NCBI GenBank assembly: GCA_900128565.1
Contig: LT635912.1
Coordinates: 1-64,000 of the forward strand
From: Stramenopiles sp. TOSAG23-6
Taxonomy: Eukaryota
Direction of reading: 5' to 3'
Length of the DNA stretch: 64,000 nt
Part shown: positions 1,735-63,491 of the stretch, in pieces
Layout of the letters: each line of letters opens with the position of its first letter
Position numbering within the stretch: the first letter of the stretch is position 1
Notes under the pieces: model-generated
Database searches by the model: none
What the model saw: only the letters and a program-made list of their open reading frames with translations
What the model was told of the DNA's origin: nothing
Translations under genes and position numbers: made by a program

Positions 1735-3757
1735 ATGCATTTTGTAAAACCTTTAGCTTTTGTGCGCACAGTCACTTTCATTTTTCTACTTTTGTGTTTT
1801 GTCCAAAACACAATGGCTCTGAAAGATTTTGTTACTGCTTCCCGAAGTCTCTGTTTTAGTTTCCTTGCTCGTTTTGGTTTCGAAGGAATGGGAAGACAGC
1901 AATTTGAAAACTATAATTCTTTAGATACAACAAAAAACGGAGAGACTGCAGAGCTTTTTGCGTTAGGTGATGATGCTATCCCAAATGACTATAAAACATT
2001 TATTGACATTACTGTCATTTATCCCATCTGGAAAACGGAGCAACTGGCGTTAGTAGTATATTATGACGATGAAAATTGGGATGAGGTGTATGGTGGCTCC
2101 AATGGTGGTGGTATTTCCTGTGCTGATAAGAGAGCAAAAGCTCCCATTGTTATACCATTGTCAGTTGACGACACTATTGATTATTCCAACCCAAATAATT
2201 GGGGTACTTTTTCTTTGCAAGTGAAGAAATACAAATATGTGTTTGTCTCGAAACAAAATAGATATGCATACTTTGGTATCGTAAATGCTAATCCTGCAAA
2301 ATGTAAGCAAAATGATTCATTGTACTGCGAGCAAAATCTTAATTTTGTGAGTGTACTCATGGAATTTTACAACAAGGGTTCTCAGTTTTCGTATGAAAGT
2401 TTATACTTATACGAATTTGTAATTGTATTTCTAACTTTTCAAACAATGTTATTGTTGATAGCAATTGTTTTTGGGGTTTTATTATTTCTTCAAGGTAAAT
2501 TCCATCATACGTATCGTTTGATTCTTGCAGCAGTATTCTTCCAGTTGTCAGGTCTAATTGCAAAATTTATTTATCTATATCAGATTAAATTTGAAGGATC
2601 GAGTAATAATAATTTGGATATTCGGTTCGAATGGGTCTCTACATTTTTTACTGGGTTTTCTGATTTCTGTTTACTTCTTAAGTTTTTACTTGTGGCTTCT
2701 GGTTGGACAGTTATAAAACGAAAATTAGACGGTCAACGGCGAAGCTTTATTGCGGGGATAGCAACAATTTATTTATACTGTAATGTAGCGCTAAATGTAT
2801 ACTTGGTACACTTGAATGATCCAGCTAGTACGAAATATTATTACGCAACTGTCCCTGGAGCTTGTCTGATTGCTTTACGCATTGTTTGTATCATTTGGTT
2901 CTTATATGTTGGAGCTGATACAATTAACCGCTATCGTAAAAAAGTTAGTTTCTTTCAGAAATGCTTAAAATTTGGTACAATTTGGTTAATTTCCCTTCCT
3001 TTGATCGTATTAATTGCTTCTGCGTTACCCGTCATTGAACGGATGAGATTTACTTACATCTGTGAAGTGATCGTAACATTTGTAACACAGGCTTTAATTT
3101 TATTCATGTACGTTTTCATCAGGAATTTCAATTTTTTTCATAGAAAATTTTGTACCTAACAAAAAAAATCGAATGTAAAATATTTTTCCATTATACATGT
3201 ATGGTCCTACAAATGACTATAATAGTTTCTTTCCATTTCATGCAAGAACAAAGGATATGATAGATTCACAAGGTGTTGGTTCTGAATTAGTAGATAGTTA
3301 TCGCCGTACGGTTTTGTCACAACTCACAGATGAGAGCCAAATAGAAACTAAAGAGGGTGAAACTAAAATAGATTATACTTCTCTACCTCAAAAAGGACAT
3401 TCGATTAATATCGAAGATGACGGAGAGTATGAATTGACGATATCATTTCGTCGATCTCTTTATCAAATGCTTTCCGCGGTCAATTTATTCCATGAAGAAG
3501 TTGAATCTCTCAGTGGCATTTCGCATAATATGAAACTTGATACAAATGAGTTAGAATATGAAGATGAGGATTTGGCGTATGATTTAGAGGAATCGTCAGA
3601 AGAAGAAACAGTGGATCAAAGTAATCAAAACGTACACCAATATAGGGCTAGTGAAATGCACTACAGGGGGTTAGAAATGAGAAAACTTGATTCCAGCTCG
3701 AATGATAGTGCAGTTCGTGGATCATCGCTTTTAGACGCCGTAGATGCAAGGGATTAA
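1735..3757 (+). CDS. TMEM145/GPR180-like (GOST family) 7TM protein; exons 1735-3107 and 3199-3757
   Basis: Signal peptide, FLARFGF lumenal start, QFSYE, HHTYRL, GWTV, FPFH motifs; 7 hydrophobic segments; join LFM|YGP. Confidence 0.8.
3108..3198 (+). other. Non-canonical GT-AT intron, 91 nt, phase 2
   Basis: CAT|GTACGT...GTACCTAAC...AATATTTTTCCATTATACAT|G. Confidence 0.88.
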
Positions 3758-3837
3758 AAAGCAAAATTATGGTGAAGTCATTATATTCTAAAATATAGTT
3801 TTTGTATTAGAATTATTTTCATTTATTTATATAGGAA

Positions 3838-7012: not shown

Positions 7013-10000
7013 TTATCCTACTAATGGCCTTGCTTTTGCTTGTGTTGTATAATTCTGAACATTATTTTGACCCATTATTTCTAATCCTCTCACGCTTTGT
7101 TGAACCATGGATAAAATATCTACATCACTCATGGTATCATCACCATTCGCCTCAAGCAGCATAACTATTAATAAAACTTCCAGAAGATTATCTGAAATTT
7201 CATCCGATGATTTATTTTTACCAATCAAATGAAGAATATACATCATTCTCACCTGGTGTTCAGATGGTGGTATGTTCGTATTCCAATGATTATTTGATTT
7301 ATTACTTACAGCGAAGGGAAGGCCTATCATTTTTGCGGCATCGCAATCAACATGAAGAAAACTTATGACATTTGCAACATTGTATCCTCCGTGATAGGGA
7401 TTTCGCGGTATTTTCTTTTTCAGTTTGTTGATGATTTGAAATGCCTTTCGCCTGGATTCACGTAAACGCTTTTGTTTATGAACTATTATTGATTTTTCAT
7501 CATCTTTTTTTTCTTTCAAATAACCATTTAAAGGACTATTAATAGAAACAATATGACCACTAGTCATTGCTGAGTGTAACGTGCTATTTTTGGTCCCTAA
7601 GTCTCGTGTTGATCGCATTTCCTGTCGCACTTGGAGTATCGAAGCCGATAAAGCTGCTGATGATGCTTCTTCAAACTCTCGCCGAAGACTAAGAAGTTCT
7701 GCTGCGTGTTTCGCCTCCAATGTATTGTGAAAAATATTTTTTTTAGCCAAAAAAATAGTTAGGTACAAAATTTGTTACGGAAAAAAAATCGAAATTCAAT
7801 TTTGAAAACATACATGTGGCCCGAGTAGCTGCAATGTGATCCTTATGATATGTTTCAGCACTGAGAAATTGTTCATTCATTTCGTTTCTATGTTGCTCAA
7901 ATTGATCAATTAATGTTTCTTTAAATTTAATCATTTCCTGCTCTTTGCTAATATCATCATTTTCTTTTGTTTCTGCGGAAAACCGTTCGTACTCATTTTG
8001 CTGTTTGACTCGGAGTTTATAAATTTCTTCTTTATGAGCTAATTTACACATTTCCTGTTCCTGCACTGCACATCTACGAACTTCATCTAATTCCCCAGAA
8101 TGAATCTGTCTCAAAGATGATAATTCTTTTTCATGAACAAGTTTTTCTCTATTAATTTGTGCTAGAAGTTTTTTTATATGAGATTCTAGTACTCGTACAG
8201 TTTCTTGAAGATTATTTATATCATATTCATTTTGCTCTTCGATAGTTGTAATTTGTGCTTTAAATGCAGCTTGGATGTCATCCACATTTCGAGAATGACT
8301 TTCACTTTGCTTCTTCATTGCTATTCTATAGTTGTCTAAATTACTTGCTCCTTTATTCATTTCCTTCTCAAGTAATATCTTATACTTGTCAGTTTTACAT
8401 TTCTCTTCCTGAACCAACATTTTCTGATTGTCTAGCTCAATTATATGCCATTTTTTCAGTTGTTCAATCTTAAATGCAGTATCAGCAGCAGGTGAAGAAC
8501 TATTTTGACTTATGATATTGCCCATTTTTGTGTTAATAGAAAGTGGACTTGTGGAATTGTTCACAGTGAATATACTAGTAGAAGTTCCAACGTCAAACGT
8601 GTACGTTTTCTCGGGTGGGAATTGTATGTTGTTGGTGGGATTGTTTCCCATAAATACCTCGATTTTGCTTTGGGAATCATCGGCATCCAAATTTCGACGA
8701 TGGTCAAATTCGTTTATGGCTTTATTGACCGATTCAATTTGGTTATAAAACGCACTTAGCGAAACAGATGCAGTATCTGACATTTTTGTAGGACTGTTTA
8801 TGTGTATGGGAGTATTAATATTGTCCTTGCTGCTGTTGACAGGAGTGGCCATATTGTTGACAGGAATGTCAATGAAGTTCGTTTCTACAGAAGGCTTGGT
8901 ACGAACTCTGTATGCGTACATATTCTGGGATGCATCTAAATTAATTATTACTTTTTGTTCTGCAGCTGTTAATCCTGAACGAGTTAATGTATCCACTGAT
9001 GCATGCTCTAAATCATCGATATTAAAAACACGCATTTCCTTCAAATTAGCGATAACACTAGGTGAGATCCCTCTCACCTTCAAGAGCGCCTCAAGTGAAG
9101 GATGCATTTCATTTTCGATACAGGATAAACCATGCGCACCAAATGCAGAGTTTTCCACAGAAGACCACAAATGATTCATGAATTTATGAATACCTTTATG
9201 CTCTTTATTATCATCATTACCAGTGCAGTCACTGCTTGATGATTCTACAGCTCCTTCCCTTTTTTGTGCGGCGATGTTGTGATGTTTTCTATGGAATAAG
9301 TCAAGTGCGTCATTTTCTACTTCCCTGCCAATTACTGAAACTTTGTTTTCTAATTTTTCTACTTCTCTACCGAAAGCAGATGTTTCTCGTTTTATTTTTC
9401 TGCCGATTATAAACCCTTCTTCTTCTACTTTTTTTACATCACTCTTAATTACAGCTGCTTCTCGTTTTAGTTTTCCACCGATTATGATTGTATCCCTTTC
9501 TATTTTTTTTACAACTCTTTGAACTTCCTTTTCTATGTTTGTTGTATCCTTTTTAATTACTCCTGCTGCTTTTTTTATCTCTCTCTTTATAGCAGCTGCT
9601 TCTCGTTCTATTTTTCTGGTGATTCCTACTGATTCCTTTCCTACTTTTTTTGCATCTCCCTCAATCATAGCTGCTTCTCGTTTTATTTTTCCACCGATTA
9701 CAACTGCTTCTTTTTCTGCCTTTTTCAAATCTTTTTCAATAACAACTGCTTCTCGTTTTATTTTTCCACCGATTACAACTGCTTCTTTTTCTGCCTTTTT
9801 CAAATCTTTTTCAATAACAACTGCTTCTCGTTTTATTTTTCCACCGATTACAACTGCTTCTTTTTCTGCCTTTTTCAAATCTTTTTCAATAACAACTGCT
9901 TCTCGTTTTATTTTTCCACCGATTACAACTGCTTCTTTTTCTGCCTTTTTCAAATCTTTTTCAATAACAACTGCTTCTCGTTTTATTTTTCCACCGATTA

Positions 10001-13670: not shown

Positions 13671-13719
13671 TATTGAAAAAAAATAAATCGAGTTGGGTAA
13701 ATGCTTGTATTTTTTTAAT

Positions 13720-15246: not shown

Positions 15247-17835
15247 TTACCATTCAGCCCCTGGCCCAAAAAATTCAGCAAGTAGATCTTTATCATGCAG
15301 AATTCTCTGAATAGTTATTTTAGGAACAAATCGGTAAATTCCACGGCGGACATTAGCTCCAGTGTTTATCTGATGTTGAGTCACGGCACTTATAATTGCT
15401 GTGTCTAGGCGAAATTGTTTGCGAGCAAGTTTTGAGTAAAACTTCTTGGCATAAATCAAATTTTCCTTAAGTTTCTTATGCTTTTCTCTATCGAAATGTC
15501 CATTAACGAAATGTATTGTAGTTCCTCTCACATATTGAAGTATATCCTTGTAGGAAGCATCATTTTTCGCTAAACTTAGAATTTCATATATTTCACACGC
15601 TTTTGGGTTCGACTTCCACATTTTCCGAGGTATGTATTTTATAGCTATAGGGTTGTTCAGGATTGCCATAAGCGCCATTTCTTTGTCCATAGAAAATTGT
15701 ATGCTTGTGAATTTCAATGCTTCGCCCTTATTTTTAATTGCTTTTAATTGTACTTCAAAGTCGCCGTTAATTGCCTTCTTTTTTACAAGTTCCCGATTCC
15801 CACGGAGAGATATGTCTGCACATCTCAAGGCAAGGCCATCTCGTTCCACTGCGATCATGACAAGTGTTTTATACACATTAGGTGTAAAATCATTTTTATT
15901 CACCGCACATAGCGCCTTTGGTTTCACCTTTAGAATCTTGGTTACAAATGCAGATGTATTGTGAAAAAATATTTTTTTTTTTTCTGTTAGGTACAAAATT
16001 TAGTACGAAAAAAAAAATTCGAAATTCAAATAAAAATAAAACAAACAGTTCTTTCGGAGTTTTGGATCAGCATAATTAAAAGCTGAAAAAGACTTGGTAA
16101 CAGCAGCCATCACCACCTCTTCATTAGATCGAACAGTTTTATGAAAATCTTTGAGTGAACTCCCATTTCTTTTAACAATTTTTAAAGCCAATTTTGTATC
16201 TTTTTTATAGGCAGGGGGACAAAACTCAATTGCTCCTGCTGCCTTTTTTAATGCCAATGAAATAATCTCATCATCTATTATCCCAGCATAACGTAAGGAT
16301 GAGGCATGGTTTTGAACGGCTTGTTTAACAACTGCTTTATCATTTTGTAGAACAAAGTGGGCGTATCGTAGAACATCGGGGCCGAACTTTACAGCATTAA
16401 TAACAAAAGCTCTATGTATTGTGAAAAAAAAAACTATTTTTTTTAGCGAAAAAAATCGTTAGGTACGGAATTTCGTACGGAAAAAAATGAAATTCAATTT
16501 TGAAAACGTACATCATGTTTAAGACGTGCGGAGGCGTGATTCATTGCCATTCCTTTGGTACGTTTTAAGGCTTCCATCATGTAGTTTGAGAAAATATTTT
16601 TTTAAATTTGATTTGTTTTGTTACAGGTATGACACTTTCTATAAAATAAAAACAAACCACAAAATCCACAAAATCATGAAAAAAAACAAACAAAAAAATA
16701 AAAACAAACCACAAAATCATGAAAAAAAACAAACAAACAAAAAAACGTACATGAAAGTTGAGTTGTCTTTTAATTCGTCAGGTGCAAGTGCAATCACATC
16801 AACATTTTCTGCAAACCATTTTTTCGTGTTTCGTAGAGCATTAAGTACGACATTTGATGATCTCAACTCTTCTGGTACTCTTCGCAAAACATAAATATTT
16901 TCTTTCGTCGAAAGCATAATAATCTCCGTATCACGTTTCAAATGTTCTGAAAGAAAAACATAACTTCTTTTACTTCTCTTGCAAAGGTATTTTCCAACAT
17001 CCTTGTTTTCTTTGAGTCTCCCTAACAGCAACATTTGGGTCTCAAAACTAAATGAGTCAGTATGATACATGTACCAGTCAACTAGTAACACATCAGTATT
17101 TAAGTTGGGGAGCATATTTTCCACACAATTTTTGATGTTTTGTAACACATTAACCTTTCTTTCGCCTTGGAGATTCGCCGGAAAAAAATCGCGACAATGG
17201 TATTTCGCATTACTCCATAGACCAGCTCGAAATAATATTTCTCTGTCACCTCGCAATGACTCAGGCATTGATGTGAAAAAACTGTGAGAACGATTGAACC
17301 ATGTATGACGACTAAAATTCAAAAGAGCAATATTTTCCAAAGCTTCAATGGCAAACTTTCGACGTCGTCGCGCATCAATGGTAAGACGCTCATATAGATA
17401 TGGATTTGTTTGAAGTGTTTTCGTGATCAGAAAGGAAGAAAAATTCAACCATATGGAAGGATTTATTTCCGGGGGGTGGAATATAAATTCTGGATTTGCT
17501 TTAATTCGAGCTGTGAAAGTGTCAATAACGATTTGTTGTACTCTTGGATGATTCTGCATAGCCATGGAGGCGTATTCAAAATGATCAACATTATTACGTA
17601 CCGCATGTAACACCGCATCAAGGGTATTCATTTCTGGGGGTTCTGGGGGAGCGTCGTCGAAAGTTATGCCACCCCAAAAGTCCTCCATTTCTTTGCGTTC
17701 GCGTTCGAGGGCTACACGTGCTCTTTTTTTCGGCGGTTGGAGCGGTTCGGGCGGTTGTTCAGCTGCATGTGCATTTTGTATACTTGAAACAATAAGCAGC
17801 AATAATAAAAGTAATTTGTTGAATGCGCAGTTCAT
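15247..17835 (-). CDS. DUF4116-repeat protein with signal peptide; exons 17835-16751, 16578-16512, 16413-16047, 15953-15247
   Basis: Repeats of AVxxxGxALxYAxxxLxxDxxxV type; three family introns join all four exons in frame. Confidence 0.8.
15954..16046 (-). other. Non-canonical GT-AT intron, 93 nt, phase 1, donor GTTTGT
   Basis: ACT|GTTTGT...GTACCTAAC...CACAATACAT|CT; join KLRKN-SAFV. Confidence 0.85.
16414..16511 (-). other. Non-canonical GT-AT intron, 98 nt, phase 0
   Basis: GAT|GTACGT...CGTACCTAAC...CACAATACAT|AGA; join LKHD-RAFV. Confidence 0.88.
16579..16750 (-). other. Expanded GT-AT intron, 172 nt, phase 2
   Basis: CAT|GTACGT...TTTG-rich expansion...TACCTGTAAC...AATATTTTCTCAAACTACAT|G; join STFM-MEAL. 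Confidence 0.8.
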
Positions 17836-18129: not shown

Positions 18130-19942
18130 TTACAATCGACCTCTCGACACTAAAATTGCTTTTTTTAATCCATTTAAATTTTTACGAATTTTAGCTTTTC
18201 GAAAGTCAATTTGAGCTTTTTTCTGTTTTATTTTTAAACGCTGAGCTTTTTCACGAATAAATGCTTGCTTGCTTCTCTTTTGTATTGTAATGTTTAAAGT
18301 TTTCATTTCTGATACTGTTAATTTCTTTCTTTTTAATTTGGGTACTTTGGAAATAAAAAGTTTTCCAATATGTGGTGGATTCCCACACGGTAAACCGTTT
18401 AATACTGGTCTTGGTGAATTCATTGATATGTTTTTATTTATTCTAAAAAAATATGTAAAATTTAAAATTTGTTAGGTACAAAATTTGGTAGAAATCTTTT
18501 TTTTAATTGATGAAATCATGAAAACGTATTTTTTTCTCTAGGGAATCATAAAACTTATTTCTTTGCTTTCGTTGAAGTGCATATTTTTCAGATATCTGCA
18601 AAATTTCTTGCTTTAATTCTTTGACATCTTCTCCATCAATCACTGGTTGTAACATTTCATTTTCATATTTTTTATTGTCAATCATTGGTTGTAACATTTC
18701 ATTTTCATATTTTTTATTGTCAATCATTGGTTGTAACATTTCATTTTCATATTTTTTATTGTCAATCATTGGTTGTAACATTTCATTTTCATATTTTTTA
18801 TTGTCAATCATTGGTTGTAACATTTCATTTTCATATTTTTTATTGTCAATCATTGGTTGTAACATTTCATTTTCATATTTTTTATTGTCAATCATTGGTT
18901 GTAACATTTCATTTTCATATTTTTTATTGTCAATCATTGGTTGTAACATTTCATTTTCATATTTTTTATTGTCAATCATTGGTTGTAACATTTCATTTTC
19001 ATATATTTTTTCAAAAGGATTGCTGATATTTAACTCTTTCTTTTCTTGCCGTTGCACTTCTGGAGGCGTAAATATCCTTGATTTCATGAGTGATAGTGAA
19101 GGTATAACCGTTGGGGTAGAGTATTTAAGTGGCCCTTTTTCTTTTTTTCTTTCTCTGCTTCTTTTTTCTTTATCATTAATTTCTATATCATACTTATGAT
19201 TATCCTGAATATTTTCTTCCTTTATTCTTTCACTGCTTCTTTTTTCTTTATAATGGAATTCTATATCATACTTTTGATTATCCTGAATGTTTTCTATTAT
19301 AATTTCTGTTTCTGATGTAATTCGAACTATACCTTGACTTGGAACTGTCTTCTTGACAATGCAGAATCCTTCTCGGTTTGTATTACCATACGGAGTGCAT
19401 GGAAGTTGAACTGTCGCTTCTAAAATTAAATAAATGCCCCATAAACTTCTTTTAAGTTCTACCTCCATCGATTTTATGTTATTCGAGTTTTCCCAACCAT
19501 AACCTTCTCGTTTAAAAAGTATTGTGACGGATACTGCATTTTGACTCTCCACTGACCAAAGTTTGACTATTGACAATGTTAGCGGTATAACAGTTCTTCC
19601 TAGTCGAAGTATATCCTTTTCAAATTGCCGAAGTTGAAAAGTAACTGGGAGGGACACATGTGGATTAATTTTACTTATATTTTCTTTGCCGTCATCATTG
19701 ATAAGAGCAACAGCGGTACAAAGGTACCAGAAAACACAATCATCTTCAAGCACAGCTACGACAAGTGGGTCACCAGATACTATTGGGCGTGAGTGAATAA
19801 AAGTTGACAATAAACTTGGACTTTTAGTCCTTCGAATGGCACATGTTGCTATTGAGGATGGAATGATTCCTTCGAGAGGCATAACTTTTGCTAGAAAATC
19901 TACACCCCGGGGCAAATTTAATCCATTACTATTGATAGACAT
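18130..19942 (-). CDS. Hypothetical protein with weak CDC48/PEX N-domain-like region and 14-aa tandem repeats; exons 19942-18530 and 18435-18130
   Basis: Long ORF plus downstream ORF joined in frame by a family intron (LEKK|KNISMNSP). Confidence 0.65.
18436..18529 (-). other. AT-AT intron of the same family, 94 nt, phase 0
   Basis: AAA|ATACGTTTT...GTACCTAAC...ATATTTTTTTAGAATAAAT|AAA; modal family length; an in-frame AC 6 nt further downstream is an alternative acceptor. Confidence 0.72.
18636..19004. repeat. Coding minisatellite, 42-bp unit, about 9 copies (YENEMLQPMIDNKK)
   Basis: Near-perfect tandem array. Confidence 0.95.
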
Positions 19943-25100: not shown

Positions 25101-25652
25101 AGATTTATTAATTTGTCTTGGAATTTTAGAAAATAGACTTACATTAGTAAATCCAGGTCTCCTTTCTGTGTGCAATGCGATAGATGGTGCTATACAGGCA
25201 AGAGTATGTTCAAGCGCCATATTAATGAATATGTCTGATTCATTCTTACCGGCCATGCATGCTGTATGGACATCCAGAAGAGCAATTGATGTTGTACATA
25301 CATCGGATACAGGTTTTTCATGTACTTCGGAGAGAGAATCCAATACAAGTAGAAACATTCTCGGTGTACAGATTCATATAAAATGGCCACAAAATTATTT
25401 TGAATGCTTACTCCAAGGGAAAGAAGTTTTTACTTATGCATGTAGTATTGGAACTCTGGATCGTCGAGTGCAATTACCTGTAATACGCGAACTAGATGAT
25501 GAAATACTTCAACGTTTGAAAGAAGATCCTGTATGTTTTATTTTTTTTCAATTTCGAATTTTTTTTTCGTACGAAATTGTGTACCTAACAATTTTTTTTA
25601 GATTTTTTTTTAGAAATATTTTTCCAAAATACATGGGTGGGCAGCAGAATAA
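22192..25652 (+). CDS. Large secreted protein with coiled coils and possible non-catalytic thioredoxin-like domains; exons 22192-25530 and 25635-25652
   Basis: Signal peptide; two related segments (SYKFRGRMKFVE, AKYVNRMTFAD); family intron near the 3' end gives KEDP|GWAAE*. Confidence 0.65.
25531..25634 (+). other. Non-canonical GT-AT intron, 104 nt, phase 0
   Basis: CCT|GTATGT...TTTCGTACGAAATTGTGTACCTAAC...AATATTTTTCCAAAATACAT|GGG; boundary set by family homology. Confidence 0.78.
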
Positions 25653-46500: not shown

Positions 46501-47840
46501 ACCGTTCTTCAGAAAGCTCAAATGGAACAGGTTGAACTCCCATTACTTGATTGTGATGATTCAGATGAGGATGATGTAGATGATCCGATGGACACTGACA
46601 GATCTTCTATGTCGCGTTCGCAATCTCAGTCAGATTTTGGAATTTCTGGTTCTGAAAGTCAAGATGGAAGTAGTGTAACATCAGGCTCGGCCACTATGAG
46701 GTTTAGTCAACGAATGAGTACTGGCGTACGACGTAATCGTAATATTGCCGCACAGATTGATTTTTCAGCATTAAAACGAAATCGTGATGTAGAATTATCG
46801 CAGAGTGAACACACGGTAATTCATAAACAATACGTAGCTACCATTAGAGAAATTGTTGGTGATTTAGAGACAATAAAGCCAAATATGCGAGCTTCAGCGG
46901 CATATGACAAAGCTGATGAAGATCTCACGAAACAAACTGCGGAATATTCTACAGTCAGAGAGACACAAAGAACGACTGATAAAAAGTTTGAAGAAATACG
47001 AAAATTTCGCCACGCAGCATTCATGGAAGCATTTGCGCATATATCTACGGTAATTCCTGCTGTGTATAAAGAACTTACAAAAAGTCCTCTCCATCCAACA
47101 GGTGGTTCTGCTTACTTGACATTGCAGAACCAAGAAACGCCATATCTTGGAGGTGTTAAATATTGTGTTCTTCCTCCAGGAAAGAGATTTCGTGATATGG
47201 AACAGTTATCTGGTGGTGAAAAAACAATTGCAGCTTTAGCTTTATTATTCAGTATACATAGTTTCAAACCTGCTCCATTTTATGTAATGGATGAAATCGA
47301 TGCAGCGCTTGACAATGTGAATGTTCAAAAAGTTGCTAACTTTATTCGCCTACGTAGTAAAGGGAGTCCGTTTTCATTTCAATTTCGTATCTAAGTTTTT
47401 GTTTTCGTAGATAATGTTGTACCTAACATTTTTTTTTTGAAATATTTTCTCAAAATACATGTATTCATTTAGGAAATGCGAAGCTTCGTGGAAGTATTAA
47501 TACAGACAGTGACGCTAATATTTTAAGTATGACTCAAAGTCAAAATGAAAATGAAAATGACTTGTTGGTATCAAAACCTGAAAAAGGTCTTCACTTTGAA
47601 GGTACACAGTTTCTTGTGATTTCACTAAAAGATTTGTTTTACAGTAAGGCAGATTCATTAGTTGGTGTATGCCGCGATGAGAAAAAATGCTGTTCGGTAA
47701 CAATGACGTTAGATCTCACTAAATACGAGCGCAGTAAGGAAAATGATGACACGCAAAATAACCAACAAAATATTGTCAATGAGGCTATCCAGGATGATGA
47801 TGGCGAATATTCTCTCATAAACGCCAGTCATAGATATTAA
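43520..47840 (+). CDS. SMC1: Cohesin subunit SMC1; exons 43520-45083, 45191-47365, 47461-47840
   Basis: [27 protein letters not shown], hinge [34 protein letters not shown]. Confidence 0.97.
45084..45190 (+). other. Non-canonical GT-AT intron, 107 nt, phase 1
   Basis: CAT|GTATGT...TTTCGTACGAAATTTTGTACCTAAC...CCAAAATACAT|TT; restores [12 protein letters not shown]. Confidence 0.9.
47366..47460 (+). other. Non-canonical GT-AT intron, 95 nt, phase 1, donor GTCCGT
   Basis: GGA|GTCCGT...GTACCTAAC...CTCAAAATACAT|GT; links in frame to the terminal QFLVISLK exon. Confidence 0.85.
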
Positions 47841-50756: not shown

Positions 50757-50786
50757 TGATAAAATAATATAATTGTTTTCTTTTTA

Positions 50787-53700
50787 TTATCTTTGTTTGT
50801 CTTTTCTTACATTAACTAGCAAAAAATATGCCACTATTCTGAAAAGTAAACCAAATATAATAAGGCAGATTATATCAAAAGCAAAATCAGGCTTCCGATG
50901 CTCCTCAGGGGCATTTTTGTCATATTTACTCATGAGACAACTAGCATCATCGGAATTACCACAGTTGTCCCAGTCCATAAAACAACCATCTTTCTCTCGA
51001 AGTCTTTCAGTATTCTGATTCTGATTATTAAAACTGTCAATACATTTCTGGAGTACTGTAGTTGGAAAATCAGATTCGTGGCCAATACCCATTTCTATCC
51101 AAGTCAGTGCTCTTGCGGACCACCTACTATATGCCCAATATGCGAACTTGCCAGCCTTTGGGACATATCCACCAAAGAGATTAATCAATACTGCAAATAT
51201 GACAGAAGTTAACGTAGCAAGTGACAAATCAGTTTGAAATGCACAGCCAACTGCGTAACCCATTCCAGATACAGTCCATACAACACAGAGAGCCCATTGT
51301 AGATATGAGCTTGTTGGGCCTGCAACATCTACAATGAGTGCTACAGGTGCGATAAAACAAACAGCCCCGATACACTGGAGGGGGAAATCAACCAAAACTA
51401 CTGCCAGAAAATACGCAAGTTTATTTACACCAGCACTTGCTTCACGCCAAAACACAATCTTCTTTTGACCACAGAATGATACACAAGAGACAGATGCTGC
51501 ACAGACACCAAGAGCCATTGTCATGAAAAAACCAAATGGGCCCAATTCATTTCGAAGAGGTTCAAAGCATATTTGTGTAAAAATATTCTTTTTGTACAAT
51601 TTGTTAGGTATGGAATTTCGTACGAAAAAAGAAATCGAAATGGAAGAAAAATAGAAACATACATTTCCATTCAGCACCCGATGGGCAATTTTTCGAATAT
51701 TCATTGGCACCTCCTCTTGGCTCAATTAACAGTGGTTCAGATCCAAAGATGATAGCAATAACAAAACCATCAAATACAAATGCAAGTAAGTCAAATCCCA
51801 ATTGGTATGTGCGAAAAAAACGAATTCTAATATTTTGTACAATAAAGGCTCTCAATTGAACAAAAAAAACAGGAGCTTCTTTCGACGTATCTGACATTGT
51901 TTTGTTGTTTTCTGGTGTAAGTTTTGTATCTGACTTCGTTTCCGTTTTCATTTCCTGAAATGCTTTTGATAATTGGTTAGATGCAAGACGAGATGCATTA
52001 ATCTGGGATTTCACATTTTTTGTAATAGTGCTACTTTTGCTTTGACCACCATCATTTTCAATTCTACCGCATAAAACATCCAACACAAAATCTGCGAAAT
52101 TGTCATCAGAATCTTTTTGGTACCCCATTTTTGCAAAGTGAGCTTCCGCGAGGCTAGCTTGACCTAAATAAACAGTTTTACCACCATATCCAAGTAACAT
52201 CAATGTATCGATTTGATTGTATATTTCAAGCCGAGGTTGATGTAGTACACTCACGACAGTAACTCCACCATTTGCAATGGTTTTCAATGCTTTCATTACC
52301 CCAACTGCTGTACTCGAATCTAAGCCACTCGTTGGTTCATCTAATAAAATAGCTAAAGGATCCATTACCAACTCTAATGCAATATTGACTCTTTTTTTCT
52401 GTCCGCCACTAATTCCTCTTCTGTACTCATCTCCAATGATGACGCCTGCAACGTCTTGAATGCCCAGAACATTCAGTACAGCTTCGACTCTATCTTTAAT
52501 ACTTTTCTCTGATACTTGTCTTGCACTTAAACGCGTTTTGGCAGAATGTGTTATGGCTTCTCGAACTGTGAGTTCTGGATGCATGACATCAGATTGAGGC
52601 ACAAAACCAATACGTGACTTAAAATCTGTTAAACATCCTTCTTTTTCATTGATAAATACTGTACCATCAGTATGCTCCAATTTCCCCGCAATGATATTAA
52701 GAAAAGTAGATTTCCCCGCTCCACTAGCACCAAGAATACACATTAAATTACCAGGTTTAATTTCGCCATTCGTCCCAGATAAGCGAAACTTCTGCGATTG
52801 TTTTTTTTTGATACAACAACCACAATATTTATATTGAGTTGGAATCTTCAATGCGAGGGAATGAAATTTAATAGATATCGAATCCTTTTTCGTTGTAGAG
52901 ATTTTTTCGACTTTACTTTCTTGAGTTTTATTTTCTTGAGTTCCGAGATTTTGCATTTCAACTTGTGGTTGTTGGGAAACTTTACTTTGTCCTTTTCGAA
53001 AAAAACATACCAAAAAAAATTGTCCGCCCACTAAAACAATTACAATAATAAGCAAAAATGGTTCTGAATTTGATTTTGCCCCTTCGGCGCAAATGGATAA
53101 TTTCCCACATTTTTTTGGAGTTTTTGATCCCCTTGGACAATAATAACCTTTAGGACAAATTGTTTTAGTACCTGCATATTTGTCACAATAGTACCCAGAC
53201 GGACATGCCACAGGATATTGATTTTCCTCGCAGTGTAAGCCTGGAGCACATGCAGTCAATGTGACGATACATTGAGATAAATCTCCAGCTTCTTGATAGA
53301 TGTGTCCTGGTTTATGAGACACCCATTTATATGGATCCTTACAAGTATTTTGGGTGGTTGCAGAGGCGTTTCCTTCACAACTACCTAAAAAACTTCGAAA
53401 TTCATGACTGTTCATTGTGGCTTTTGCTTTTGTGTTTTTTTTTTCTAAATCACAGACAGATAATAATTGCTCGCGAAAGAAAAGTATTAGAAATGTGTCC
53501 TTTTCGTGGGCAGAGTTAAAATCAGCACCATCTATTGGCCGTGTGCACACAGCTTTTGGCTTCTGACTCATGGCATGATACAGTTCAAGAAGTAGCGTTC
53601 GTGAAGCAGTGACATCTTTACACATACTGCACTCGTTAGAAAAGTTACTTGAATTATCAGAAACACTCGTATCACCCATTTTTTCAAAGAATATTCTTCC

Positions 53701-54234: not shown

Positions 54235-56109
54235 ATGGTTCATTTCTTGACTACATTGATATATCTTTTGTATTATCACTGCATACATGCAAATGATGAC
54301 CAATGTAATGAAGCTATAAAAAAGCAAAAGATAAACGTGAATAGTTCAGAGTGGAAACTGTCACCAAATCGTGTTGTTATGGACAGTAACTTTAAATGGG
54401 GTCGAGTTGTAGTTCCCATCTGGACGTCAGTATTTTTAGGCACTAATGATTCTCTCCCACACTTGGATAACACTTTACAAATTTTATCCTCATTTGAGAG
54501 TGATGAACTTGCGCTTGTTACAGTCGTAGGTGGTGGCGCTTATCTCCGTATTCTTGAACATATGGAATTTAGTTCTATTCATTTCTTTGACGCAAACGTT
54601 AACGAGTTAAGTAAACTTCGACTTGTTCATGACGATATTATCAAATATGACTATGATACATGGATAGCAAATGGTGGAATGCAGTCTGTAGCTAATAAAA
54701 TTTCCTCACTGCGGGAAAAATTTTACCTGCCAGCCCCACTTCTAACAGCAGGTGTAACCCTGCATCCTGCAACTGACTTTGAGTGGCCGATTCCTGGTCA
54801 GAGTAGTTATTATGATCCATTAGGTCGACGAAATCCACTTTGGTCAATTTTCCCTCCTTTATCTTACCCAGAGTATGCATGGAAACCAACTCGAAAGGGT
54901 TATGAGAGAGTACGCAGACAATTGAAATATCGTGTGGCAAATGAATTTTATTTATCAGTTCCTTGTGGCATCATTCCACCTAATATTCTTTCAATAGTTT
55001 ATGTTGATGGAATCAAAATTCCAAAATCAACAATACGTGCGGTTTCACGTTCGGGTGATGCTATTGGTTTATGGTCGATGGTTGAAGACCAAAAATTACT
55101 CGGTAGGGGAAATAATTCAGATTGGTCAGATTCCCATTTCTTTTGGGAGCTCGCAGTTCGTTGGAGGATTGAAAGTAGCACTACAGTAATAAATAATACT
55201 AGAATCGGTATGGATAATATTGTAAATAATGTAATGCATATTTGGGCAATTGAAGATATAAATATGATGGGAACAATCTACGATTGGATGTTTACAAGTA
55301 GCATGGAAGCATCGTCATTTGCTTCGTCTACTGTGACGACTTCAACACCCAATAAAAAGGAGACAGACAAATCTTTCAATGAAATCATTGTTTTCCATAT
55401 TCTACTTGGTAAAGCAACTACTAAAACGAATTGTTCAAAACGCGAAGAATTATTTATGAATGCGTTGATTCGAGCTGTAAAAGAACCACATGTAAGAAAT
55501 GTTCTAGTTACTGAGCATAACACCTCTTCAAAACAATTTGATATTTTAACTAATCCATGTGCATTAAATGCAGCTAATATCAGAAAACTTATCAACAAAA
55601 CATTGTCATTAACACCAGACAACATCAAAACGAACATAATAGCTACTCGTTTTCTACCTGGTGGTGGTACTCATGATAGAAATGTATTATTTGATATTGC
55701 AGTAAATGAAGGAATTCCATCAAAAAATGGTAATAAAAAAGAAACTTTCCTTGAAGATAATAATAAATCTATGAGACCAGCAACTATTCAACTTCAGATT
55801 GATGAAAACACGAAAAAAAGGCCTATTATTTTTCCATATGATGGGTCTGTAAAAGTATTACAATCTCTCGCGGCTGCTGCGTGCATGGATATTCCTCTTA
55901 CTGATAAATCATGTATGTTTTATTTTTTTTAATTTCGATTTTTTTTTCGTACGCAATTTTGTACCTAACAAAAATATTGAATGTAAAATATTTTTCAAAA
56001 TACATGCATAGACCAAATTATGAATGAAATGAAAAGAATTATAAAAGAAGATAAAAAATCTTCTGCGAGGGCGATTCGCCCTGAAAAAGAGAGCAAGGTG
56101 ATTCAATAA
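54235..56109 (+). CDS. Hypothetical secreted protein; exons 54235-55912 and 56006-56109
   Basis: Signal peptide, long ORF; join DKS-CIDQIM. Confidence 0.7.
55913..56005 (+). other. Non-canonical GT-AT intron, 93 nt, phase 1
   Basis: CAT|GTATGT...GTACCTAAC...AATATTTTTCAAAATACAT|GC. Confidence 0.85.
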
Positions 56110-57192: not shown

Positions 57193-59675
57193 ATGAGATT
57201 GATGAGACTTTTTATATATCATTTTGCATTCGTTCACACTGTTGCAGCAGAAGCATCTTTTGTGTTAAAAAGTTATGAATGCGTCGCTGGCTTCGATTGT
57301 ATGTATCAAAACAGTTGTGCTAATGATGAAGGAGTTTCTTGTCCCATTGGCCGGTTCTGTGGCAGACCCAGTTCTTTCCCCAATGGACTTTTTCAATGTG
57401 ATGGTGACCATAATCAAAGTTGTCCAGGTAGTGAATTCCCAGATGATAGGTGGAGAACTTCAAAGTGTGCCACGGGTGCATACTGCCCGACGACAGTAAC
57501 AAATCAAAAATGTGAAGCTGGATACTTTTGCCCAAGAGGGTCTGTCAAAAGAGTCAAGTGTTCAATAGGTTCAATATGTGGCGAAGCATCACACTTTCCA
57601 ATTGGATTTTTGCTGTTTGGTTTCGCAATACTTTTGTTTATTTTTTATATTTTATGCCGTCGCTTTTGTCTCACGACAAAAATTGGTCATACGATTTCAA
57701 ATGATGGTTGCGAAAACAAAAAAGAACTTCCAGTTTCTAAGAAACTGAAAATGCCATTTCCTCTTCAATTCGAATTTGATAATATATGCTGGAACTTTCG
57801 AGATAAGCCTATTCTTCGTGGTGTATCGGGTTCTGTCAAAGCAGGTGAAATGATTGCAATTATGGGTCCATCAGGAGCAGGTAAAAGTACACTAGTAAAT
57901 TGTCTAATGTCACGGTATACCCCCAGTACCGGAACAGTAACAATAAATGGATACAAAGATATTGAATTCTCTAGTATATGTGGAATAACTGGTTATGTCC
58001 CACAAGATGATATAATGTTGGCTAAATTAACAGTCAGGGAGAATTTAATGCATTCAGCAAATACTCGAATAAATTCTCAAGTAAAAGCAAATTACTCTTC
58101 AAAGGCTCGTGTTGATTCTGTACTCACCAGTCTAGGTCTAGAACATGTACAACATTGTATAGTTGGAGATACCCGTAAGCGTGGACTAAGCGGTGGTGAA
58201 AAAAAACGTGTATCGATTGGTCTTGAACTAGTGGCTAGTCCGTCTGCAATTTTTCTTGATGAGCCTACGACAGGGTTAGACTCATCCGCGGCTGAAGTTG
58301 TGATTAATCAATTAAAACTCTTTGCTAATGAAGGACACGCGGTTATAGTAATTTTACACCAACCACGTGCTAGTATATTCAAACAATTCGATAATATCCT
58401 TTGCTTAACATCTAGAGGCGAAACATTTTACTTTGGAAGTCCTCTTAAAGTTCGTGACTTTTTAAACCAAATACAAAATCCATGTCCATCGGGGAAAAAT
58501 CCAGCAGATCATTTAATTGACATTGCAACGAAAAAGGGTAAAGTATCAATGACATCTACCCCAACAAGTATTTCGGATAAATCTAAAACAATCTCAGAGA
58601 ATACAGTAAAATTTGAAGATCCAAGATTAAACATCAAAGGAAAATTAGCGAGTTGGGGAGCCCAGTTTTTATTCTACTGGAAACGTTCCTGTGTACAACA
58701 GCTACGAGATTCCATGGCACTGTATCTTTATTGTGGTCTTGTTTTCCTCATGGTTGCTTCTCTCTCAACTGGTTTTTCACCTTTTATCCAAGAAAATCTG
58801 GAGAGTGTTTACAAACCACCCCTCGGCAAATCATTGAGAGATTATTGTCCACCACACAATAAAGCATGTTCTGGCAGCATTAACGACGATGGATTAATAC
58901 AAATGATGTTTTTCTACTGTATGTCAATTGGATCAATTGGAATGCTTGCTGCATCTCGAACATTTTACAGAAGTGAAATGATAGTAATGAAAAGAGAATC
59001 AAATATTGGTCTATCCTCATCTGCTTGCATCATTGCAAAAGTTTTTGCTGATTTAAATGTAATTATATTACTATCATTGCTCGCATCAGGACTATGGCTT
59101 GCCATGGGTTATCCGGGTGGACCTGTTCGTTGGTTTGTTCTTACTTTTTCATTGTTGTTTACTTGCTACGGATGGGGATATTTTGTTTCACAAATTGTAT
59201 CCGATGATATGATTATGACAGTATGTATGGTGTACGTTTTCATACTAAATTTTGTACCTAAGATTCTTTTCATCCTAGTGTTTCTCTTTTGCTCACATTT
59301 TCTAAAAATAATTTTACTTTTCGAATGATTCCAGTTGTCATATTCTAATTTTACATTTTTTCTGACGTATAATTTAATTACAGCACTGCTCTTGGCTTAT
59401 CTGCTTTTAATGGTGTGAATCCAAAACTTGTGGATGTTCCTTGGCCGTGGAGAACCATCTGGGGCATGGGATATAGTAGGTGGATTTCCGAAGCCATATT
59501 TTCCACCTTTACAATGCATGATAGAAACAGTGGCTTACCTGTGCAATTTGCTGCATCGAGATTTGGCTATGATGTCTCCGACAATCAATTTATTCTTGAT
59601 ATTGTAGTTGTAGTGATACAAGGAACCTTATTGAGAATATTTACAGGATTTTTGATTGTTAAAAAGAATACATAA
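57193..59675 (+). CDS. ABCG half-transporter with Cys-rich N-terminus; exons 57193-59231 and 59384-59675
   Basis: GPSGAGKST, LSGGEKKR, FLDEPTTGLD, LHQPR; join VCMV-TALG. Confidence 0.92.
59232..59383 (+). other. Canonical GT-AG intron, 152 nt, with a degenerate family-derived 5' half
   Basis: GGT|GTACGTTTTCATACTAAATTTTGTACCTAAG...TTCTGAC...TTACAG|C; restores frame. Confidence 0.85.
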
Positions 59676-59795
59676 AAGATTTAGAAATAAAAACCATCAG
59701 AGATATTTTTTAAATGGCTTAATATTCAGAGCACTTCTTCAGAATGCAGGATTTTATTTGAGTAAAGTTGAACCGTTTATAAATGACCTAATCGT

Positions 59796-61023
59796 TCACG
59801 CATTTGCTGCTATTTTATCTGCTTCACCTACTATTATCGTTGATTCTGTCGATATTGCAAAATCTTCGGCCATATCCAAACTAGAACTTCTTTCTTCTTC
59901 TTTTGCTGCTTGTACTGTTGTTTCTGCTTCTTTCAATTTCAAATTTGCAACTGAAAAAACAAATGTTTCCTCTTCTTTCTTCCTCTGACAACGAAATTTC
60001 CAACGGACCTGATTTACATTTGTTTTATCTGGATCATTAGATGTCACTTCGTATCCTTCAAATGTTGGTATACCTCCTAACCATTTTTGCTTTTTTGTTT
60101 TTGGAAATCCACTTTGAATTACGCTATTTCGTGCAATTTCAGATATATCAGTTGTACTAAGGCACCATATCTGTCGAGCTATGGAATATTCTTCTAGTAG
60201 AGGTGCATCTGATAAATGAAATATCATAGGATCATCCGTGGATAAACTAACATTTAACCCTCGCTTGAAGAATTTATAAAAGGGTTGATCTTCGTATCTC
60301 ATGAATAGAACATTGTTTGATACTGGTGAAACTGCGAGCCCAATATTATCTAGATAGTAAAGATATTGCATAACTATATCATTTGCTAATCCAATTCCGT
60401 GATTAATTCCATTAGCCAATAAATAAGTAGTACAAAGATGATGTTTGGAACCACTTTCACCTGCATGTGGACGCAATGAAAAAGTATTCATTCCTTTAGA
60501 ACGCCTTAATGAATTCAATCGGCTAATATTTGCATAAAGGTAATATAATTGATAAGAATATGGAGGATTTTGTTCCGATGTCCAATCTTTTGGAGTTGTA
60601 ACCTTTCCATCAATTGTTGCAAGAGGGAGATCAAGTAAGCTTTCATCATCGACAGAGTCAAATCCTGAAACATCTTTTAGAAATTCTGAAAGCTCCGGAT
60701 ATTTTTTTGGTTTCTCAGTTGCATCAAAAAGAGGTTGAAATATATTATATATAACTTCTTGATATGATGTTACTTTTTTCAATTTGTGAAATATGCGGTA
60801 AATGTATTGTGAAAAAATATTTTTACTCGAAATATTTTGTTAGGTACAAATTTGGTATAGAAAAAAATTAAATTTAAATTTTGAAAACATATATTCTTGG
60901 AATTTGAATAAGCCATCGATTGTGTGGCTGCTGGACTAGCTTATTATTGAGAGCCCATTTTGCAAGTTTATCCCATGCATCAATGTTATCACCATAAATG
61001 GATAAACGATACTCTGCCCACGT
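59796..61023 (-). CDS. AMP deaminase, C-terminal part only; exons about 61023-60893 and 60801-59796
   Basis: AEYRLSIYG, WLIQIPR, FDSVDDES, LRPHAGESG, SLSTDDP; N-terminal half not present upstream. Confidence 0.88.
60802..60892 (-). other. AT-AT intron of the same family, 91 nt, phase 2
   Basis: AAT|ATATGTTTT...GTACCTAAC...CACAATACAT|T; restores QIPRIYRIF (an equivalent AT-AC register is possible here). Confidence 0.85.
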
Positions 61024-63491
61024 CCATTGATGCAGACATCCGGCGATATTGCTGCAATTGTTTTTCAAATTGATTACTTTGTGTGTGCGTATCATTCAAA
61101 GAGTGTGACATATTTATATCAAAATTATTTTTCATATATTGCGTCATTTCTTGTATTCCGCCAAGAGAACCACTACGCCCACGTCTTACAGGAGGCGATT
61201 TGACAAATTTTGACCCAGATGAAGATGCACGAGCTCGTTCAGGCCAAAGTGAGTGCAAATCAGGGTCTGACGGAGTTCTGCTCATGTTAAAACTATTTCT
61301 TTGCTGACGAACATTTCTACTATTATCTGGTGTTTGCCTCAAATAACCTCTTATTTGTGTAGGTGTTGTTGGTGAACCCAAAAAAGTTGAATTAGGATGT
61401 CGTGGGGGTGTTGACCCCAGAGGGGTTGGCAAATTTGATCCTAGTATCATTATAGGCGATTTTCTTGAGATATTAGTGTTAGGGGACGCATGTCCTATTT
61501 GTTGAAATTGCGGCGGCGTATTTATGGAACTGTTCAAACTTGTTGGCATGCTATTATCTGATGATGTGCTTAGTCTATGTACCCTGTCTGCAGTCATAGG
61601 AATACTATTATCTGATGACAAGCTTAGTCTATGCCTTTCAACGACTTGTCCGACAGTTAACGGTGCATTTGAATGTAATCTTTCTAATGAACTTGCAACA
61701 CTGTATTGAATAGGACTTGATGATGATGCAACCTGCATATTAGGATTCGATCTATTGCTTCCAGGTGATAAAGGGTGACAATTCCGAGGTATAGATAAAG
61801 GTAATGCAACAGACATTGGGGAACCAGCATCATTTTTTACATTGGTATATTGATTATGAGAACCAATACGTGATTGCTGTTGGGGTGACCAATTCTGTGC
61901 ACTTTGAGATGGATAGGTTCTTTGATGTTGAATCATATGAGGCATCATTGGCTGTCGTGGGGAGTAATGTGGACCTTCACTCATTGGAGAAGATATTGAA
62001 GGATGTTCCATCGACCGATCATTCTTATACATGACTTTCATTTGTCCCATATTTTGACGTCGTGCAGAGTGTTCCATACCAGTAGATGAAGACAATGCAC
62101 CTTGAGGTCCAGAATATTGTATATACTGCTGACGAGAATTCGAATAAATATTATTTGGATTGGGTTGAAATTCAGGTTCAACATATTTTTGTGGTTCAAT
62201 AGCAATATTATTCTGTTGGCCTCTTTGCTGTTGATAGTATCTATTCTGTACCATCATAGCAAATCCTGGTCCTAAATGGTCTGGAAGTGAATGTGGTCGG
62301 AAATGATCATGTATTTCGGAAAAATATTATTTTTAGTAAAAATTTGTTAGGTACAAAATTTGGTACAAAAAACAAATTCGAAATTCAATTTTGAAAACGT
62401 ACATTTGGTTGACTTGCTCGGTATAACTCTGGAGGAGATCTATAAGGAGAGTCTAATCGCAAAGGGTAGCGATACATGAGATTATGATTCCCACTATGTA
62501 TTACACTCTTAGTCTGTTGTTGTATATCTTGGGTATAATGAGTATCATGATAGTGTCTTGCTTGGTTTCGTACTCTTGGGATATTTGAACTCTGTTTTTC
62601 TACCTCTTGATTAGGGTTAGGGTTACGTTTCTTTCTCACGTCTTGGCCATCAGAAGCATCTTTCCCTTCCGGTCGATCAGCATAATTATTAATAATACAA
62701 TCAGTGACATTTGGTTGTCCAAGAATTGAACCTGAGAGATCAAATCCACAGTCTTTTGCATACATTACGCTAGCTTTTAATTCACCGAACGGTGTTCCAA
62801 TGGGAGAAAAAAAATATTTAGAAGTTTCCCGATTTGAGTTAAAGCTCAATGGCAGAGAACCATCATTGCTCACTGCATTTGCGCCAAATTCATAATTTAT
62901 ATGTGTTGTTGACAAATTGGACCGTTTCGTATTTCGCATCAGACCATATGCAGGTAGAACTCTAACAAAAGCAAATACCGATCGAAGAAATATTGCAATT
63001 CGCTTATAAACCTGTCTTAGTTGAGAGGTCATATCTCCATACTTTTTTAAACTTAAGTCTGCACCACCAGATGGATCAAAGTGTAAACTCCAACGCTCAA
63101 GTAATATACGTGACGAAGTTGTGTTATCATTGTGATTCTTGGCTTCTACAGAGGGTATTCCGACACCAGAAAAATGACCAGCACAAGCTCCACCCCCGCC
63201 CATCCAAAATATGTCACACTCTTTGAATGGTAAATATGGATCATGCTTCCATGGTTCTAGCTCTTTGCGCACAAAATCTATGTTTTCTATGTGCAAATTA
63301 AATGGCGGCCTCGTCTTCTTCTTTTGAGTCCTTTGAGGAGACTGAAAACGAACACGAGATTGTAACACAATCTCCGATATTTTGAACAAAGATTCAAGTA
63401 CAATACGTTCACACTTTCCTCGCTCATTCTTTTCCAAAGCATTACCTTGTGCAGATTGCCGGCGTTTAATTGCACTAGAAGGTGCAGACAT
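60989..63491 (-). CDS. ATG13: Autophagy protein 13 (HORMA domain plus Ser/Pro-rich disordered region); exons 63491-62403 and 62308-60989; C-terminus possibly truncated
   Basis: IVLQSR, FNL, LLERW, YKRIAIFLRSVFAFVRVLPAY, TPFGEL. Confidence 0.85.
62309..62402 (-). other. Non-canonical GT-AT intron, 94 nt, phase 0
   Basis: AAT|GTACGT...GTACCTAAC...AATATTTTTCCGAAATACAT|GAT; joins the two ATG13 ORFs in frame. Confidence 0.88.

Follow-up and report, generated by a model that had tools for sequence, protein, structure and literature searches.

A family of GT...AT introns forming essentially the whole intron set of a 64-kb stretch of stramenopile DNA, and its possible introner-like spread

Introners of marine algae were reportedly treated by Huff et al. 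in 2016. Introner families occur in many marine protists, and the part of the survey by Gozashti et al. available to us describes the relations between duplications of the target site (TSDs), inverted repeats at the termini (TIRs) and splice sites as diverse, some families having neither duplication nor repeat. The introners of Micromonas, Aureococcus, Symbiodinium and Chrysochromulina are, according to the same part of that survey, short introns of nearly uniform length and sequence in unrelated genes. In the accessible accounts of marine-algal introners the similarity between copies ends at the exon border, copies are numerous and splicing restores the coding sequence; their ends are GY...AG, ordinary introns stand alongside them, and in many of them locus-specific TSDs are seen, or TIRs that measure 6 bp or more. 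Here we describe a family of introns in a window of 64,000 nt, which is the whole stretch of DNA analysed (positions 1 to 64,000 of the forward strand of contig LT635912.1, GenBank assembly GCA_900128565.1, Stramenopiles sp. TOSAG23-6). The family resembles the marine-algal introners in its numerous short, nearly uniform copies, which lie in unrelated genes, lose their similarity at the exon border and restore the coding sequence when spliced. It differs from them in its AT acceptor, in accounting for practically all introns of the window, and in that neither a TSD nor a usable TIR can be demonstrated.

The segments are best described as spliceosomal introns of one sequence family, in which a canonical, strong donor and branch motif are combined with a non-canonical acceptor. 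We infer that they are removed by the major spliceosome.

Anatomy, removal and repetition of the introns

A profile built from 7 clear copies and run on the window with nhmmer (cut-off E<0.01) gave 19 matches, 18 of them intron copies and one located in a coding exon. An additional long copy (16750-16579) was recognised by eye and reached an nhmmer E-value of 4.8 only. In total the window holds 19 copies of the family, of which 16 are complete, one is cut by the window start, one is degenerate and one is a variant ending in ACAG. All of them are intragenic and in sense orientation, and the family constitutes essentially all introns of this window. An earlier note on this DNA, made from the sequence alone, had described a homogeneous intron family in unrelated genes, and this description stands: the similarity reaches the exon borders and stops there.

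The consensus can be written as (A)T/GTAYGTTTT...TTCGTACGAAATTTTGTACCTAAC...AATATTTTTCMMAATACAT/, with slashes marking the exon borders. Conserved blocks in the alignment are the 5' GTAYGTTTT, a T-run followed by TTCGTACGAAATTTTGTACCTAAC, and a 3' block of 20 nt, ...AATATTTTTCMMAATACAT, which holds the acceptor as its last bases. Among the 17 copies whose donor flank is readable, sequence conservation sets in at the donor and ends after ...CAT. The donor is GT in 16 of these 17 and ATATGT in the remaining one; GTAYGT is found in 12, the others having GTATGC, GTATGG, GTCCGT, GTTTGT and ATATGT. At the opposite end, all 16 complete copies terminate in AT (CAT in 15, ATACAT in 12) and none in AG. 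The branch motif is strong (TTTTGTACCTAAC), its presumed branch A being 33-50 nt from the 3' end, and the predicted motif ACCTAAC is present in 14/16 complete copies, with ACCTCAC and ACCTGTAAC as variants. Lengths are likewise uniform, 14 of the 16 complete copies measuring 91-107 nt and the other two 122 and 172 nt. A pattern of 26 bases taken from the 3' half occurs 7 times in the window, as opposed to 0 matches in each of 100 shuffles.

Preferences extend into the exons. Among the copies with a readable donor flank the exon position -1 is T in 16/17 and position -2 is A in 12/17, and a weak preference for G follows directly after the acceptor (9/16). When the variant at 59232 (GT before its donor) and the degenerate copy at 18529 (AA) are added, T precedes the donor in 17/19 and AT in 12/19. 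These counts reproduce those of the earlier note, as do the intron phases of 7/7/5 from the gene models.

Excision of the segments as GT...AT is exact. It fuses the longest frames on either side of the intron in 12 of the 13 copies tested, the thirteenth being followed by a last exon of 5 codons, and four further complete copies yield uninterrupted open reading frames (ORFs) after excision. Solved homologues (two chains of GTP cyclohydrolase II and two of AMP deaminase, three of the four compared residue by residue) show continuity exact to the residue over three junctions. Exon A of the cyclohydrolase gene corresponds to 7ej3_A up to residue 222, exon B to residues 224-287 and exon C to the chain from 289 onwards, with the split codons falling on residues 223 and 288. 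The AMP deaminase exons, separated by the copy with the ATATGT donor, correspond to 2a3l_A up to 411 and from 413, with 412 as the split codon. A related protein (P0137, 83% identical) aligns without gaps to the spliced model over residues 51-443, spanning both cyclohydrolase junctions. Its cluster mates P0241 (47-456) and P0242 are ungapped over both junctions as well, and all three proteins are 81-83% identical.

The acceptor of the complete copies is not AG. An AG 3' of the branch motif is absent in 9/16 complete introns, and the AG present at +3 to +25 in 7/16 is unused according to frame or homology. In the introns 38366-38273 and 38078-37982, use of the next exonic AG would remove residues which are conserved in all homologues. 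Because these two introns have no AG able to serve, we regard the non-AG acceptor as real. The variant copy at 59232..59383 (+; 152 nt, phase 2, in an ABCG-type transporter gene) seems to end in ...TTCTGACGTATAATTTAATTACAG (ACAG). It has the family donor and core (GTACGTTTTCATACTAAATTTTGTACCTAAG) and a divergent 3' half. Given its donor, ACAG is the sole in-frame acceptor after the last stop codon, and it is preceded by a second branch-like motif, TTCTGAC. This copy hints that T and G are both accepted as the last base of the intron.

Since T almost always occupies exon position -1 and A mostly position -2, the cut can also be written further to the left with no change of the mRNA, by two bases in 12/17 copies (ATGTAY...ATAC) and by one base in 16/17 (TG...CA). 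GT...AT is the sole register in which the ends are uniform (GT 16/17, AT 16/16).

The family is repeated genome-wide and in an independent sample. The DNA contigs from run X1 show no difference from the window and break at every intron of the first 20 kb (8 introns). On the same 20 kb, 2,981 contigs of X1 and 2,693 contigs of the independent seawater run X3 pile up, and the X3 pieces are ~97-100% identical to the window on unique sequence. Depth bins that hold introns reach ~10 to 250 times the depth of neighbouring bins in these 20 kb, a coverage that gives no copy number. An assembly artefact was considered and rejected, as contigs of X3 run into the introns; one of them covers 6982-7810 and reaches into the intron at 7720..7813. 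A metagenome scan with exon 2 of the SMC1-like gene gave 80 loci, of which the best was 32% identical and none belonged to a close relative, and the family motif was not found in motif scans of viral contigs and prokaryotic genome contigs. In a protein search with an ORF consisting of exon B and the read-through of both flanking introns, the best listed matches cover at most 82% and mostly 56-68% of the query, of which exon B makes up 64 of 101 residues, a coverage that speaks neither for nor against the same introns in relatives.

Origin of the family

Several properties of the copies suggest that they were derived from one another. Their pairwise identity has a mean of 0.70 and reaches 0.86-0.88 in the best pairs, compared to 0.59 in shuffled controls. 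Permuting each of the 38 variable columns of the alignment halves the variance of pairwise identity, and 0/2,000 permutations reach the observed value. Individual pairs share blocks which have no evident splicing role, such as GAATGTAAAATA in the copies at 3108 and 55913 and GGCTAAAAAAAAT in those at 7813 and 16511. The position of the introns within their genes is likewise uneven: the relative position of 15 introns in the coding region has a mean of 0.685 and a minimum of 0.38, and the probability that all 15 lie above 0.38 under a uniform distribution is 8e-4. Relic introns of intron-poor genomes are 5'-biased. We favour multiplication of a founder because the copies avoid gene starts, which is opposite to the bias of such relics, and because parallel changes from G to T at the last base of very many introns appear far less parsimonious than the spread of one intron. 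A 3' bias would be the outcome expected from 3'-primed cDNA copying, or from weaker selection against poorly spliced insertions near the 3' end.

We therefore consider introner-like spread of one intron family, in the broad sense of the term, as the best reading, with a probability of roughly 0.55. Most likely, a single founder intron, which already ended in CAT, multiplied in a compact host genome with few other introns. A transcript-linked copying route, e.g., reverse splicing followed by recombination, would fit no worse than cut-and-paste movement of a DNA element, because the copies are placed in sense orientation and in genes only, none of 15 lies in the first 38% of the coding region, and there is no usable inverted repeat. 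A more far-reaching version, which we put forward tentatively, is that the major spliceosome exchanged AG for (C)AT as its 3' rule in practically all introns, because a founder of ~95 nt with that end replaced the ancestral introns via transcript copying. Under such a changed rule a G-U (or A-U) contact between the first and the last base of the intron would take the place of the G-G contact. Transcript copying by reverse splicing and recombination would then explain the sense-only, genic and 3'-biased placement.

A number of observations weigh against founder multiplication, or limit how far it can be taken. The closest pairs still differ by 12-14%, which does not demonstrate a recent burst. 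The similarity between copies is inflated by low-complexity A/T runs, the variance test is open to inflation via the alignment of neighbouring columns, and the variable halves on the 5' and 3' sides show weak linkage (Mantel r=0.16, P=0.07). Conserved blocks, possibly all of them splice signals, take up about two thirds of each intron, and extreme constraint would predict the same. The intron positions are known from this window only, the position statistics comprise 15 introns in 10 genes with start codons assigned by the analyst, and the uninterrupted ORFs of the relatives (the P0137 group) may come from RNA or from intron-free DNA. With regard to splicing itself, the RNA-library runs X6 and X7 contain 18% of the words of 15200-19990, and in their contigs on 1-20000 a joint over an intron is absent among the best-supported 15 of 195 joints, a result that points in neither direction. 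Moreover, AG is probably still usable by this spliceosome, as in the variant at 59232-59383.

Among the rival explanations, the one that survives best assumes that old, unrelated introns converged under a derived spliceosome which needs long motifs and a fixed length, the exonic (A)T being part of the donor signal. It is a serious rival, which we nevertheless hold to be doubtful. The conserved blocks are indeed located at the splice signals (donor, branch and 3' end), the copies are mutually diverged by 12-45%, the long-range linkage of their variable parts is not significant, and long 3' motifs common to the introns are known from intron-poor protists (Giardia, Trichomonas). T at position -1 is absent in two copies that still need splicing, one of them in the SMC1-like gene, and because of this we interpret the exonic T as a preference comparable to other splice consensus positions. 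However, convergence would require very many independent changes from AG to AT. It also leaves aside the non-signal blocks shared by pairs and the excess variance of pairwise identity, and it is at odds with the avoidance of the 5' third of genes. The two ABCG paralogues of the window, in addition, have their introns at different places.

A more specific model was proposed by the earlier note, in which a non-autonomous DNA transposon GTAT...ATAC with a short TIR inserts at AT and duplicates it, so that the right-hand AT becomes the acceptor. We regard this as unlikely, even though AT before the donor (12/17) and T (16/17) are far above chance; compared with the composition of the coding strand, P is 5e-8 for T at -1 in at least 16/17 and 2e-9 for AT in at least 12/17. 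Splicing is residue-neutral with respect to the homologues, as if one duplicate were removed, and introners whose TSDs supply a splice site provide a precedent in the available part of Gozashti et al.

The presumed duplication was examined by a published method, comparing exon positions -1 to -6 with the last six intron positions (-1 to -6) and intron positions +1 to +6 with positions +1 to +6 of the next exon. The match within loci equals the match between loci at all 12 positions (at -1 and -2 both are 0.94 and 0.75), that is, the flank match is locus-specific at none of them. Positions -3 to -6 are not above background, and what is shared are the family-wide (A)T and the weak G after the acceptor. 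Such equality counts as 'ambiguous' under the published criterion, as given in the accessible part of Gozashti et al. Five of the 17 left flanks differ from AT, whereas all 16 right ends are AT, which argues for AT as a part of the element or of a splice signal and not as a target copy. The alternative that the earlier note itself had named, exonic (A)T as a donor signal (or, we add, an insertion-site signal), fits as well as a TSD.

The inverted repeat fares no better. It comprises 4 bp inside the element, compared to the at least 6 nt of the published TIR criterion and the 10 or more that are usual, and 6 bp when the flank is included (ATGTAT/ATACAT). Complementarity over these 6 bp is perfect in 4/16 copies and extends over at least 5 bp in 9/16, and the alternation of C and T at donor position 4 has no counterpart at the 3' end. 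Predicted folds contain no longer terminal helix. When 15 copies were folded together with two exon bases, an end-to-end helix appeared in 6/15 minimum free energy structures. The z-scores ranged from +0.84 to -2.06, with 1/15 introns below -2, and folding was no better than that of shuffled sequence. Pairing of the two splice sites in the RNA, which the earlier note had also considered, is possible but weak.

The distribution of copies and the gene content of the window do not favour a transposon either. The nhmmer scan found no full intergenic or antisense copy in the window, where ~3-4 would be expected under random insertion for 18 retained copies (P about 0.03, our own estimate based on ~10% non-ORF sequence). 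Transposase, integrase and reverse-transcriptase domains are absent from the 37 window ORFs (Pfam, E<=1e-5), and the transposase-bearing relative that the earlier note had suggested looking for was thus not encountered in the window. Finally, the 3' position bias is not predicted by cut-and-paste insertion. The transposon model has no positive mark beyond a consensus which a splice signal would also give. For the exonic (A)T and for the G that follows the acceptor, a favoured context of insertion or splicing is the best reading, rather than a proven TSD. From the earlier proposal of an introner-like origin we thus retain the homogeneous, genome-wide repeated family with similarity up to the exon borders, features by which an introner is defined in practice, and give up the AT duplication and the terminal repeat as demonstrable features.

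It is very improbable that the true termini are AT...AC (U12-like or U2-type AT-AC) or TG...CA with the exonic AT or T being intronic, which the movable cut would allow, as the AT...AC register fails in 5/17 copies and GT...AT alone gives uniform ends, and as U12-type introns combine the donor RTATCCTT with a branch site that precedes the 3' end by 10-20 nt, unlike the GTAYGTTTT donor and the 33-50 nt observed here; Rfam offers no small nuclear RNA (snRNA) in the window by which the splicing machinery could be assessed. Two further candidates were rejected. Ciliate-type excision at the DNA level is contradicted by the strong donor and branch motifs, which argue for splicing, and by boundaries that are AT and not TA. 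A known structured RNA was discarded because the Rfam scan of the window gave 0 matches, neither to snRNA nor to any other RNA family.

Host, genes and individual copies

The window is AT-rich (GC 0.33-0.385 in 4-kb bins) and compact, with 57,613 of its 64,000 bases in stop-to-stop ORFs taken as genes. The gene for the ubiquitin-activating enzyme UBA1 (28972-32115, -) is intron-free, and its named relatives include oomycete and labyrinthulid proteins at ~50-55% identity. A public protein with a source label indicating a MAST-3 stramenopile (P0001) is 100% identical to the UBA1 ORF across the aligned parts, and 184 of the 1,047 residues are missing from it in 13 gaps. From these relatives and the identity to P0001, we take the host to be a MAST-3-like heterotrophic stramenopile. 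The deposited gene model of P0001 seems to contain spurious GT...AG introns. The GT...AT introns of this genome would in turn escape predictors that assume GT...AG, and their genes would be mis-modelled. Telomere-like CCCTAA/TTAGGG units occur at 32170-32205, in the short spacer upstream of UBA1.

The first copy of the window (1..95, -) is cut by the window start; its donor GTATGT is at 95 and the preceding exon ends in CTT. It is followed by an intron of 122 nt at 219..340 (-), which ends in TTGCAT and interrupts a CobW-type GTPase gene in phase 0. The Pfam match to exon 1 of this gene stops exactly at the exon end, and the second exon of 41 aa has no Pfam match, for which reason the junction rests on the reading frame and on the end of the exon-1 match. 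The same gene contains a 45-nt tandem duplication with telomere-like CCCTAA/TTAGGG units at 455-520. The intron at 3108..3198 (+; 91 nt, GTACGT...TATACAT, phase 2) lies in a gene for a GPR180/TMEM145-like membrane protein and is supported by the restored frame and by Pfam, while the copy at 7720..7813 (-; 94 nt, phase 1) is supported by the frame test.

A DUF4116-repeat gene holds three copies on the minus strand. That at 15954..16046 (93 nt, phase 1) has the donor GTTTGT, and that at 16414..16511 measures 98 nt (phase 0). The long copy at 16579..16750 (172 nt, phase 2) contains an internal tandem duplication and the branch motif variant ACCTGTAAC and ends in CTACAT. The degenerate copy at 18428..18529 (-) has the donor ATACGT after an exonic A, and its candidate 3' ends are ACAT at 18453, ATAT at 18451 and ACAT at 18428. 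Its neighbours are an ORF rich in repeats and, downstream, a small ORF, and it may be an intron of a last exon or of a 5' untranslated region. A contig of the RNA-library run X7 (18448-18633, 1 mismatch) runs unspliced across its donor, and the copy may accordingly be retained, or the contig may stem from DNA in the library. In-frame coding tandem repeats are present at 18576-19199 (-), with ~8-9 units of KYENEMLQPMIDNK, and at 9523-10326 (-), with ~7 units of a 24-residue KREAVVIEKDLKKAEKEAVVIGGKI-type sequence.

The intron at 25531..25634 (+; 104 nt, GTATGT...AATACAT, phase 0) precedes a last exon of 5 codons, on which the frame test is uninformative. The one at 33937..34041 (+; 105 nt, GTATGC...AATGCAT, phase 0) has the branch motif ACCTCAC. 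Both introns of the GTP cyclohydrolase II (URC1-like) gene are on the minus strand: 37982..38078 (97 nt, phase 1) lacks AG 3' of its branch motif, and 38273..38366 (94 nt, donor GTATGG, phase 2) lacks AG throughout. The SMC1-like gene (+), which looks essential, is interrupted twice in phase 1, by a copy of 107 nt at 45084..45190 directly before the hinge domain and by one of 95 nt at 47366..47460, whose donor GTCCGT follows an exonic A (GGGA upstream). Further copies are located at 51569..51662 (-; 94 nt, phase 1, ending in ...ACAAATAT), in the second ABCG-type transporter gene, and at 55913..56005 (+; 93 nt, phase 1). The AMP deaminase gene contains the copy with A at +1 (60802..60892, -; 91 nt, donor ATATGT, ending in ACAT, phase 2), and an ATG13-like gene contains the last one (62309..62402, -; 94 nt, phase 0).

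In the region 60893-61060 (-), the AMP deaminase homology starts abruptly at ~61020 (AEYRLSIYG..., profile position ~348 of 630), and the N-terminal half of the protein is missing. Upstream of it, in another frame, lies the low-complexity tail of the ATG13-like ORF, with its stop at 60992. This arrangement may represent a truncated gene, a frameshift gene fusion or a chimeric assembly join.

Sequences similar to parts of the intron were also observed elsewhere. At 48186-48211 (-) a stretch of 26 nt matches the intron core (CGTACCAAATTTTGTGCCTAAC-like, E=9e-4). It is read in frame as part of a coding exon of a PhyH-like dioxygenase gene and may have arisen by chance or be what is left of an exonised copy. 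The intron-core-like motifs TTGGTACGAAAATTCGTACCAA, GGTACGAAATTTCGTAAC and TTTTCGTAC are found just upstream of start codons (17922-17950, 26331-26350, 26196-26205 and 32125-32131), one of these sites being a divergent promoter. The central palindrome of the intron, TTTCGTACGAAA, may therefore be similar to an element that serves this organism as promoter or initiator.

Comparison with known intron systems

If one GT...AT family accounts for nearly all introns of this genome, it would provide a natural experiment on the choice of the 3' splice site without AG, in which the canonical donor and branch confine the change to one base. If true, the proposed spread would also inform on intron multiplication, as a case of a family that has no clear transposon marks and shows a 3' position bias. 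In the literature covered, including the text of MAST-genome papers, unusual introns in MAST-3 are not mentioned, although the supplements may hold intron statistics. Stramenopiles and MAST are likewise not named in the available part of a recent introner survey, the curation of which treated only AG and AC as familiar 3' ends.

Among animals, most introns of the tunicate Fritillaria borealis break the GT/AG rule and are apparently removed by the major spliceosome, in which they parallel the present family. According to the accessible part of their description, however, the odd ends in Fritillaria are diverse and correspond to clear inverted repeats of transposons (introners), whereas the introns described here follow a single GT...AT rule, have a canonical strong donor and branch, and contain an inverted repeat of 4-6 bp only.

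Repeated non-canonical introns in a marine protist, with a departure from GT/AG across the genome, are also described for Amoebophrya, where, as far as the available text describes them, short direct repeats overlap the exon borders and complementary ends could bring the exons together. These elements have inverted repeats of 8-20 nt and direct repeats of 3-5 nt, and their terminal dinucleotides are not fixed. By contrast, the ends are fixed in the present family, complementarity does not exceed 6 bp, and folding is no better than in shuffled sequence.

Fungal introner-like elements resemble this family in having no evident TSD or TIR and a strong genic bias, and their spread has been proposed to occur by reverse splicing of the excised intron. 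They are longer, retain GT...AG ends and form a minority of the introns of their genomes. The 3' motif of Giardia and Trichomonas introns and the GTATGT/TACTAAC signals of yeast recall the near-invariant donor and branch and the conserved 3' block observed here; in those introns, however, AG is kept, length varies, and nothing is common between the signals. Introner families themselves are known, and the novelty of the present case is that introner-like copies obey one fixed GT...AT rule and supply almost all of the introns.

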